DNA of 64,000 nt, taken from Dictyostelium discoideum (taxonomy: Eukaryota). The stretch covers positions 1,184,001 to 1,248,000 of the forward strand of contig CM000151.3 of the NCBI GenBank assembly GCA_000004695.1, read 5' to 3'. The notes under the pieces are model-generated. The model had not been told where the DNA came from. It searched no databases and saw nothing but the letters and a program-made list of their open reading frames with translations. Position 1 is the stretch's first letter. The number at the start of each line of letters is the position of its first letter. The translations under genes were made by a program, and so were the position numbers. Shown here piece after piece: positions 5,650 through 6,482 of this stretch.

Positions 5650-6482
5650 TTAATTTCCGAAATATCTTGATGGTCTTGGACATTCACGTGACCATCCTTT
5701 TTGACATAATGGAGTGACACCCCAACCAGTTTCAGCTTGGTTACAAACGCTTGGGAAGAAAGTATCAGTAATATTATCTAAGACACCACCAATAACAACG
5801 ATGTTGTGGTTGATACCATAACCTAATTTGAAGATTTCATTTGAGTCCATTGGTAATTGATTGAAACAACGTTCACAATACATGTTTGAAACGTATGAGG
5901 CAAAGATAACTTTTTGGAATTTAGTCCACATAATAGCAGCAGAGCACCTAAAAATTATTTTTTAAAATTATTAAATTAGTAAGATAAATAAATAAATAAA
6001 ATCATTAAAATAAAAAATATTTACATTGGACATGGTTCACCAGTAGTGTACAATGAATAGTCTTCCCAGGTGGCTTGTTGATACATAGTAGTACAATTCA
6101 TGATAGCTTTAACTTCACCATGATACATTCTTGAACCACCAACGTTAACACCAGTACAGGCAACAGTACCATTTTTGTGGACGATTGCAGCAGCAAATTT
6201 GGAGTTATTTTCAATGGCAATATCAATTGCAATTTGCATATATTTTGAATGGTAAGCTAATTCGGCGGCTGATAAATCTTTAGCATGAGTAATATCAGAC
6301 TAATGGAAAATTAAATAATTAATAATCAATTTTTATTTTATTTTATTTTTTTTTTTTTTGTCAAAATAAATACATACTGGAGCTACATCAAAGTATGGTG
6401 ATGATGGGCATTTTGAGTGATCAGCAAATACTGATGAGAATGAAAGGGTGACTAATAATAATACAAATAAAAATAATCTCAT
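5650..6482 (-). CDS. Secreted CDA-fold zinc deaminase of the GuaD/TadA guanine/nucleoside deaminase type, with a C-terminal Cys-rich extension; 3 exons, ~225 aa
   Basis: Exons on the minus strand are 6482..6378 (MRLFLFVLLLVTLSFSSVFA signal peptide; donor CCA|GTATGT), 6299..6025 (acceptor ccattag|TCT; donor CCAAT|GTAAAT, phase 2) and 5947..5650 (acceptor tttttag|G TGC). The splice restores PCPM|CSAAIMW. The zinc motifs H-G-E (MYHGEVKAIMNC) and PCPMC are present. LYTTGEPCPMCSAAIMWTKFQKVIFAS aligns with B. subtilis GuaD LYTSCEPCPMCLGAIYWARPKAVFYAA. Confidence 0.8.

Follow-up and report, generated by a model that had tools for sequence, protein, structure and literature searches.

What does a zinc deaminase of the TadA/GuaD type do when it sits behind an apparent signal peptide in the genome of a social amoeba? 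The question is raised by the gene DDB_G0272030, which lies on the minus strand of a 64,000-nucleotide (nt) stretch of Dictyostelium discoideum DNA (contig CM000151.3 of assembly GCA_000004695.1, positions 1,184,001 to 1,248,000; hereafter the window). From its sequence, the product of this gene, UniProt entry Q86JM0, is probably an exported small-molecule deaminase, a zinc-dependent hydrolytic enzyme acting outside the cytosol. The gene itself is already annotated in databases, where Q86JM0 is labelled a hypothetical protein or a "CMP/dCMP-type deaminase domain-containing protein", and is functionally unstudied. Searching the literature by gene or UniProt identifier, we found no main-text mention of DDB_G0272030 or its paralogues.

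A first-pass annotation of the window had joined three minus-strand exons into a protein of about 225 amino acids (aa). This hand-built gene model was exactly right, because its spliced translation is identical at every residue to the D. discoideum AX4 protein (XP_645389.1, Q86JM0). The coding sequence of 678 nt begins with an ATG at position 6482 and encodes 225 aa, and both introns follow the GT..AG rule. An in-frame TAA lies 8 codons 5' of this ATG with no intervening ATG. The D. firmibasis orthologue (L088:6001-6775) is 95% identical, and the order of NUDIX, deaminase and sedolisin genes is the same as in D. discoideum. Its only intron, 97 nt long, occupies the site of intron 2, so that the signal-peptide segment and the deaminase form one continuous open reading frame (ORF). 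The first splice of the D. discoideum gene is independently supported because the orthologue is intronless at this position. The presence of intron 1 (6300-6377) in D. discoideum and its absence from D. firmibasis also record an intron gain or loss between close species. Within the window, tblastn found the DDB_G0272030 locus alone and no second copy.

The first-pass annotation had aligned the core of the protein with GuaD/TadA-type enzymes of the cytidine deaminase (CDA) fold, and this alignment was upheld. The motifs it quoted are present, and Pfam dCMP_cyt_deam_1 (PF00383) matches residues 52-143 at 3e-18, scoring 66 bits where the cut-off is 25. H95-G-E97 and P124-C-P-M-C128 supply the zinc and catalytic residues, and H95, E97, C125 and C128 do not vary across an alignment of 38 sequences that extends to bacterial relatives. 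The top single-sequence matches in the PDB were yeast cytosine deaminase variants (5e-8) and Bacillus subtilis guanine deaminase (7e-8), and the family profile scored E. coli-type TadA (1e-34) and GuaD (3e-32) about equally. The AlphaFold2 model of Q86JM0 has a mean pLDDT (predicted local distance difference test) of 84.7, with residues about 40-192 mostly above 90. Its five-stranded sheet has helix 4 ahead of strand 5, the arrangement that defines the helix-4 division. These observations place Q86JM0, as predicted from sequence, in the helix-4 TadA/GuaD/FCY1/RibD branch of the CDA fold, with its catalytic residues intact.

Within this branch, B. subtilis GuaD and yeast FCY1 resemble Q86JM0 in several respects. 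Their PDB matches range from 5e-8 to 9e-8, the LYTTGEPCPMC segment of Q86JM0 is near both, and FCY1 has the same HGE motif. Both deaminate free bases with 2-amino-4-oxo or 4-amino-2-oxo rings. Unlike Q86JM0, they are cytosolic and have no disulfide-type cysteines, and their C-terminal lid or swap elements, with Tyr156 in GuaD and Trp152 and Asp155 in FCY1, have no aligned counterpart in Q86JM0. GuaD is marked by a helical insert and by a swapped C-terminal segment whose Tyr binds substrate; the profile alignment to GuaD 1wkq ends at chain residue 128. TadA and ADAT2 are likewise cytosolic, with a basic C-terminal tRNA helix and a DPTAHAE motif, whereas Q86JM0 has SRMYHGE, a loop shorter by 3 residues, a signal peptide and a helix 5 (ITDTFFPSV) that contains no basic residues. 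The mature protein is mildly acidic, with a pI of 6.1. The acidity and the non-basic helix 5 lean toward a small-molecule substrate, and the substrate is most likely, on this sequence evidence, a free small molecule rather than nucleic acid. The aligned pocket positions Asn87, Val146, Ser147 and Gln157 fit a bicyclic substrate, a non-discriminating fit that we treat as weak. HMMER places Gln157 opposite GuaD Asp114, in a region where the alignment is weak.

By the established chemistry of the fold, H95, C125 and C128 would hold a zinc-bound water. The activated water would attack the carbon bearing an exocyclic amino group while E97 shuttles a proton and ammonia is released, so that the amino group of the heterocycle would be exchanged for oxygen. 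The substrate may be a base, a nucleoside or a pteridine, in each case a free small heterocycle met outside the cytosol.

Evidence for export comes from the N-terminus, the cysteine pattern and the relatives. At its N-terminus, Q86JM0 carries a basic residue together with an uncharged core of 18 residues, and V-F-A occupies positions -3 to -1. This call was rule-based (n-region, uncharged core, small residues at -3 and -1). Every full-length family member inspected shows the tripartite pattern, and in D. firmibasis it is contiguous with the ORF, which agrees with the cleavable signal peptide proposed in the first-pass annotation. Compared with cytosolic homologues, the catalytic His is set about 40 residues farther from the N-terminus. 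The mature chain has a mass of 22.8 kDa and contains four N-x-S/T sequons. Several relatives carry additional surface-type features: hydrophobic tails resembling glycosylphosphatidylinositol (GPI) signals occur in P0064-68, P0070, P0072 and P0073, and CBM49 fusions occur in P0039 and Tieghemostelium lacteum DLAC_08229. P0080, a eukaryote-like metagenome protein of 364 aa, joins the deaminase through an acidic linker to a C-terminal WSC carbohydrate-binding domain (8e-19). Because of the signal peptide and the conserved cysteines, Q86JM0 is very probably not cytosolic. It would enter the secretory pathway and act in the medium, at the cell surface or in the endolysosomal lumen.

The C-terminal region is less exceptional than it had appeared. 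The first-pass annotation had described the last 80 residues or so as an extra segment with six cysteines. Apart from an insertion of 7-8 residues, the stretch from about 145 to 192 can be aligned with TadA-type deaminases, where it covers strand 4, helix 4, strand 5 and helix 5; it is modelled at pLDDT 80-98. Because the TadA alignments reach about residue 192 and the model shows regular elements, most of the segment, about 48 aa, is ordinary fold. A true extension does exist, comprising about 33 aa (193-225) with 3 cysteines and pLDDT of about 40-70, and profile searches gave no significant domain match for it. The cysteine count in the last 80 residues is five (151, 154, 195, 208 and 216). 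The insertion relative to TadA carries C151-x-x-C154 in dictyostelids, together with Gln157 in the motif G-x-x-Q-I-x-I, which is common to bacterial relatives. Q86JM0 has ten conserved cysteines in all. Seven or eight of the conserved cysteines are non-zinc, and seven of these (25, 83, 104, 151, 154, 195 and 208) recur in 24 divergent members from dictyostelids. Within the dictyostelid family C195 and C208 hardly vary, and C216 occurs in some members, including the D. discoideum-type subgroup. Even copies that no longer have the zinc cysteines (P0071, P0075 and P0077) retain the non-zinc ones. This pattern is as expected of structural disulfides, which the protein probably contains. The positions of all features are collected in Table 1.

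Table 1. Features of the DDB_G0272030 locus, in window coordinates
Feature	Position	Strand	Description
Whole gene DDB_G0272030, ATG to stop	5650..6482	minus	three exons and two introns; spliced translation matches XP_645389.1 / Q86JM0
Exon 1	6378..6482	minus	aa 1-35: signal peptide and beginning of mature protein, including conserved Cys25
Predicted signal peptide	6423..6482	minus	aa 1-20 (MRLFLFVLLLVTLSFSSVFA), predicted cleavage after VFA; rule-based
Intron 1	6300..6377	minus	78 nt, GTATGT..TAG
Exon 2	6025..6299	minus	aa 36 to second base of codon 127; helix 1 to zinc loop
Deaminase fold proper	5752..6272	minus	aa about 45-192, broken by intron 2; includes family-specific 7-8 residue insertion
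H95-G-E97	6114..6122	minus	zinc-ligand His and catalytic Glu; H95 and E97 invariant in 38-sequence alignment
Intron 2	5948..6024	minus	77 nt, GTAAAT..TAG; splits codon 127 within PCPMC motif
Exon 3	5650..5947	minus	aa 127-225 and stop; Cys128, latter half of fold, tail
C-terminal extension	5653..5751	minus	aa 193-225, with C195, C208 and C216; no known domain; low model confidence

DDB_G0272030 is one of four predicted-active paralogues found in D. discoideum. The Q8T1Z7 gene is 85% identical to it, DDB_G0282171 63% and DDB_G0272442 58%. Family members also occur in D. purpureum, Polysphondylium, Cavenderia, Heterostelium, Tieghemostelium, Acytostelium and Synstelium, that is, in every dictyostelid lineage sampled. 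The first-pass view that such a gene is unusual in an amoeba genome must be dropped for the dictyostelids; among named matches, none came from other amoebozoans. A neighbour-joining tree (200 bootstraps) was built from 28 dictyostelid sequences, their relatives and TadA, GuaD and FCY1 references. All 28 dictyostelid sequences formed one clade with 97% bootstrap, apart from the references, and placement among ordinary cytosolic deaminases, the outcome named beforehand as refuting the proposal, was not what the tree gave. In P0071, P0075 and P0077, the zinc PCxxC motif is replaced by PDSLS or PDPLA and HGE by HSE or RSE. P0075, a full-length protein of 429 aa from the related isolate Dictyostelium cf. 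discoideum, keeps its signal peptide and has a long low-complexity tail. These three copies are probably catalytically dead secreted pseudo-enzymes, judging from their motifs.

The best-scoring relatives outside Dictyostelia include many bacterial "nucleoside deaminases" from many phyla, at 28-39% identity over residues about 40-192. They include proteins from Alphaproteobacteria, Myxococcota, Nocardia, Streptomyces, Legionella santicrucis, Nostoc and Planctomycetes, and a protein of Photorhabdus (P0040). Many carry N-terminal export signals of the twin-arginine (Tat) or Sec type, and 20 of the 30 best non-dictyostelid matches looked exported by a crude score. These bacterial proteins share the 7-8 residue insertion with its conserved Gln and are encoded by stand-alone genes; they are uncharacterised as well. 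Unlike Q86JM0, they have no CxxC pair, Cys-rich tail, N-terminal Cys or introns. Secreted-looking eukaryotic relatives were found in Claviceps, in Mucoromycota and among soil metatranscriptome proteins, and the Phycomyces blakesleeanus relative is labelled by JGI a "secreted cytidine and deoxycytidylate deaminase". The fungal and other eukaryotic relatives, including the WSC-fused protein, belong to the same deaminase subfamily and share signal-peptide-like N-termini and extra cysteines, but they form separate clades with differing tails. One such clade, with 99% bootstrap, unites a second dictyostelid lineage, Heterostelium album PPL_08516 (P0165), with Mucoromycota and environmental sequences (P0262, P0136, P0248, P0254, P0269 and P0276).

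Horizontal acquisition, raised in the first-pass annotation, is plausible because the best-scoring relatives outside Dictyostelia include many bacterial proteins, and a bacterial origin of an already exported enzyme is a plausible reading of these sequences. Neither donor nor direction can be named because bootstrap support at the deep nodes is below 25%. DDB_G0272030 itself is fully domesticated, with introns and host base composition. The window has a Dictyostelium-like G+C content of about 22%; separately, positions 40001-44000 reach 0.30-0.34 against the background of about 0.22.

A family of secreted deaminases has been described before in social amoebae. In three other dictyostelids, Krishnan et al. 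2018 reported secreted AID/APOBEC-like deaminases whose C-terminal domain contains four Cys (PMC5889660). This AAD family was found solely in D. fasciculatum, T. lacteum and Acytostelium and was described as extremely divergent (PMC5889660). The dictyosteliid AADs and SNADs resemble the present family in their signal peptide, Cys-bearing C-terminal region, dictyostelid paralogue expansion and proposed bacterial origin (PMC5889660). The Q86JM0 family, in contrast, is plainly TadA/GuaD-like and is present in D. discoideum. No AAD or SNAD model gave a significant match to Q86JM0, and on SNAD and APOBEC models Q86JM0 scores below TadA. Where the AADs have a pocket-limiting aromatic in loop 7, Q86JM0 has Val146 and Ser147, judging from a manual alignment in the TadA register. 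The two family members found in T. lacteum lie on LODT01000035.1 and LODT01000015.1 among unrelated neighbours, whereas the published AAD locus is on LODT01000051.1. Because the AAD tests failed and the T. lacteum members lie on other contigs than LODT01000051, we infer that the two are different families.

Several alternatives to an exported small-molecule deaminase have to be weighed. The protein could be an ordinary cytosolic housekeeping deaminase, an orthologue of Tad2, GuaD or FCY1 whose N-terminus is a mis-annotated exon or a membrane anchor. The strong profile similarity to TadA and GuaD speaks for this, but we consider it highly improbable. In D. firmibasis the N-terminal exon runs on into the ORF without a break, the N-terminal hydrophobic segment is conserved in the family, the catalytic His is displaced inward, the cysteine pattern is conserved, and the family forms its own clade away from the housekeeping references. 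D. discoideum has separately annotated tRNA-specific adenosine deaminases (PMC12711200), and Q86JM0 scores 29.5 bits on the NCBIfam TadA equivalog (PRK10860) against a cut-off of 150; because of these two points it does not appear to be the housekeeping enzyme. A different proposal keeps export and changes the target: a secreted nucleic-acid-editing deaminase serving defence or predation would act on bacterial, viral or competitor RNA or DNA. The first-pass annotation had pointed this way, likening the architecture to secreted deaminase toxins and effectors, and here it was not supported. The match of Q86JM0 to Pfam MafB19-deam (41 bits) is generic, because the same model gives 138 bits to E. 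coli TadA, 88 to GuaD and 69 to yeast FCY1; on the SNAD4 model, TadA, GuaD and FCY1 all outscore it as well. No toxin-clade-specific match of Q86JM0 exceeded the housekeeping level. The 225-aa protein is a single domain with no delivery, cell-entry or pre-toxin domain, and it fell far below threshold in PADLOC and on the NCBIfam anti-phage deaminase model. Toxin or defence-family membership was rejected on the generic MafB19 match together with these sub-threshold scores. Bacterial neighbourhoods were inspected in detail at three loci, and 150 flanking ORFs at 77 of the 80 homologue loci were scanned with Pfam. Among them we found no conserved partner or immunity-like gene; the flanks hold generic regulators and show within-genus synteny. 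At two Photorhabdus loci (L001 and L002), the Tat-signal deaminase P0040 lies amid a PemK-like toxin fragment, a histone-deacetylase-family gene and a large TcdA/TcdB-pore toxin gene, a context not conserved elsewhere. The D. discoideum/D. firmibasis orthologue pair has synonymous (dS) and nonsynonymous (dN) divergences of 0.37 and 0.044 and a dN/dS of 0.12, which points to purifying selection and not an arms race. The mildly acidic protein, its non-basic helix 5 and the placement of the T. lacteum members on LODT01000035 and LODT01000015, away from the AAD/perforin/peroxidase locus LODT01000051, also argue against nucleic-acid editing, which we regard as improbable. The "toxin-like" Pfam label is thus uninformative on exported TadA/GuaD-like proteins.

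Closer to an exported small-molecule deaminase is a salvage or detoxification enzyme, which would process ordinary nucleobases and nucleosides of digested bacteria, such as guanine, cytosine, adenine and guanosine, in the phagolysosome or the medium and have no chemoattractant role. The top PDB matches to cytosine and guanine deaminases favour it, a signal peptide suits equally well the lysosomal enzymes, which Dictyostelium secretes, and exported relatives occur in soil fungi and bacteria of absorptive lifestyle. The syntenic neighbour is a sedolisin/TPP1-like protease. This downstream gene (3136-5078, minus strand) comprises at least 2 exon pieces with matches to Pro-kuma_activ (5e-21) and Peptidase_S8 (2e-7), and its family includes secreted and lysosomal Tpp1 proteins. 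On the upstream side, a minus-strand gene at 9466-10641 codes for a protein of 391 aa that has a NUDIX domain (2.7e-12) and is rich in Cys and His in its middle region. Paralogues with GPI-like tails or cellulose-binding CBM49 domains are less expected of a purely lysosomal salvage enzyme, and the residues that form the C-terminal substrate lid in GuaD and in yeast cytosine deaminase do not align. The observations above accommodate salvage and a pteridine substrate alike, and we hold salvage to be possible but doubtful.

Within the favoured class of exported small-molecule deaminases, the leading candidate substrate would be the 2-amino-4-oxo-pteridine ring of folate or pterin. On this tentative and speculative assignment, which we consider unlikely enough to be offered only as a candidate, DDB_G0272030, its paralogues (the Q8T1Z7 gene, DDB_G0282171 and DDB_G0272442) and the relatives with GPI-like tails in other dictyostelids would be the extracellular and surface folate/pterin deaminases of dictyostelids. 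Such enzymes would inactivate these chemoattractants and permit self-generated gradients. The Dictyostelium folate/pterin deaminase activities are known from the biochemistry of 1978-1987. They remove the 2-amino group hydrolytically from a 2-amino-4-oxo heterocycle, occur in several forms at extracellular and surface locations, which would match Q86JM0 if its prediction holds, and their gene has not been cloned. The assignment is attractive because this reaction takes the 2-amino group off a 2-amino-4-oxopyrimidine ring, as GuaD and RibD do with their own substrates, and because soluble, GPI-like and wall-binding dictyostelid versions would suit several enzyme forms. The folate deaminase of Dictyostelium is secreted and at the cell surface, with a size of about 40 kDa (PMC4794234), and a 2021 review states that it was "identified biochemically but is yet to be cloned" (PMC8616412). 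We found no later cloning report in the literature. D. discoideum, P. violaceum and D. lacteum are all reported to possess pterin deaminase activity (PMC13197243).

Several points weigh against this assignment. The pterin deaminases characterised elsewhere belong to the amidohydrolase superfamily and have a TIM-barrel fold, unlike the CDA fold of Q86JM0. The mature chain of 22.8 kDa, with its four sequons, compares with the reported size of about 40 kDa, so that a match would need a dimer or heavy glycosylation. The bacterial neighbourhoods gave no pterin or purine hint among the 150 flanking genes at 77 of 80 loci. None of the paralogues found in D. discoideum ends in a GPI-like tail, such tails being those of other dictyostelids, and no substrate, localisation or expression datum for DDB_G0272030 was found in the literature. 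At one bacterial locus, on a metagenome-assembled contig with the homologue P0044, two small ORFs separate the exported deaminase from an M20-family peptidase upstream of it (L003:3829-5151); the folate-cleaving carboxypeptidase G2 also belongs to the M20 family. This pairing occurs at a single locus and is not conserved across the 80 loci.

Herein, our analysis describes the DDB_G0272030 family as part of a widespread, uncharacterised subfamily of apparently exported TadA/GuaD-like proteins in bacteria, fungi and social amoebae. The family is a candidate for an ancient gene transfer followed by eukaryotic elaboration, with introns, disulfide-type cysteines, GPI-like and CBM49 variants and presumably dead paralogues. 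The chief experimental system for studying self-generated gradients is the chemotaxis of Dictyostelium to folate, and the attractant-degrading enzyme has been known as an activity alone since about 1980. The four conserved, putatively exported GuaD-like genes of D. discoideum provide a short candidate list for this never-cloned folate deaminase. If the assignment is true, they would represent the first pteridine deaminases with a CDA fold and would descend from an exported family of bacterial enzymes.

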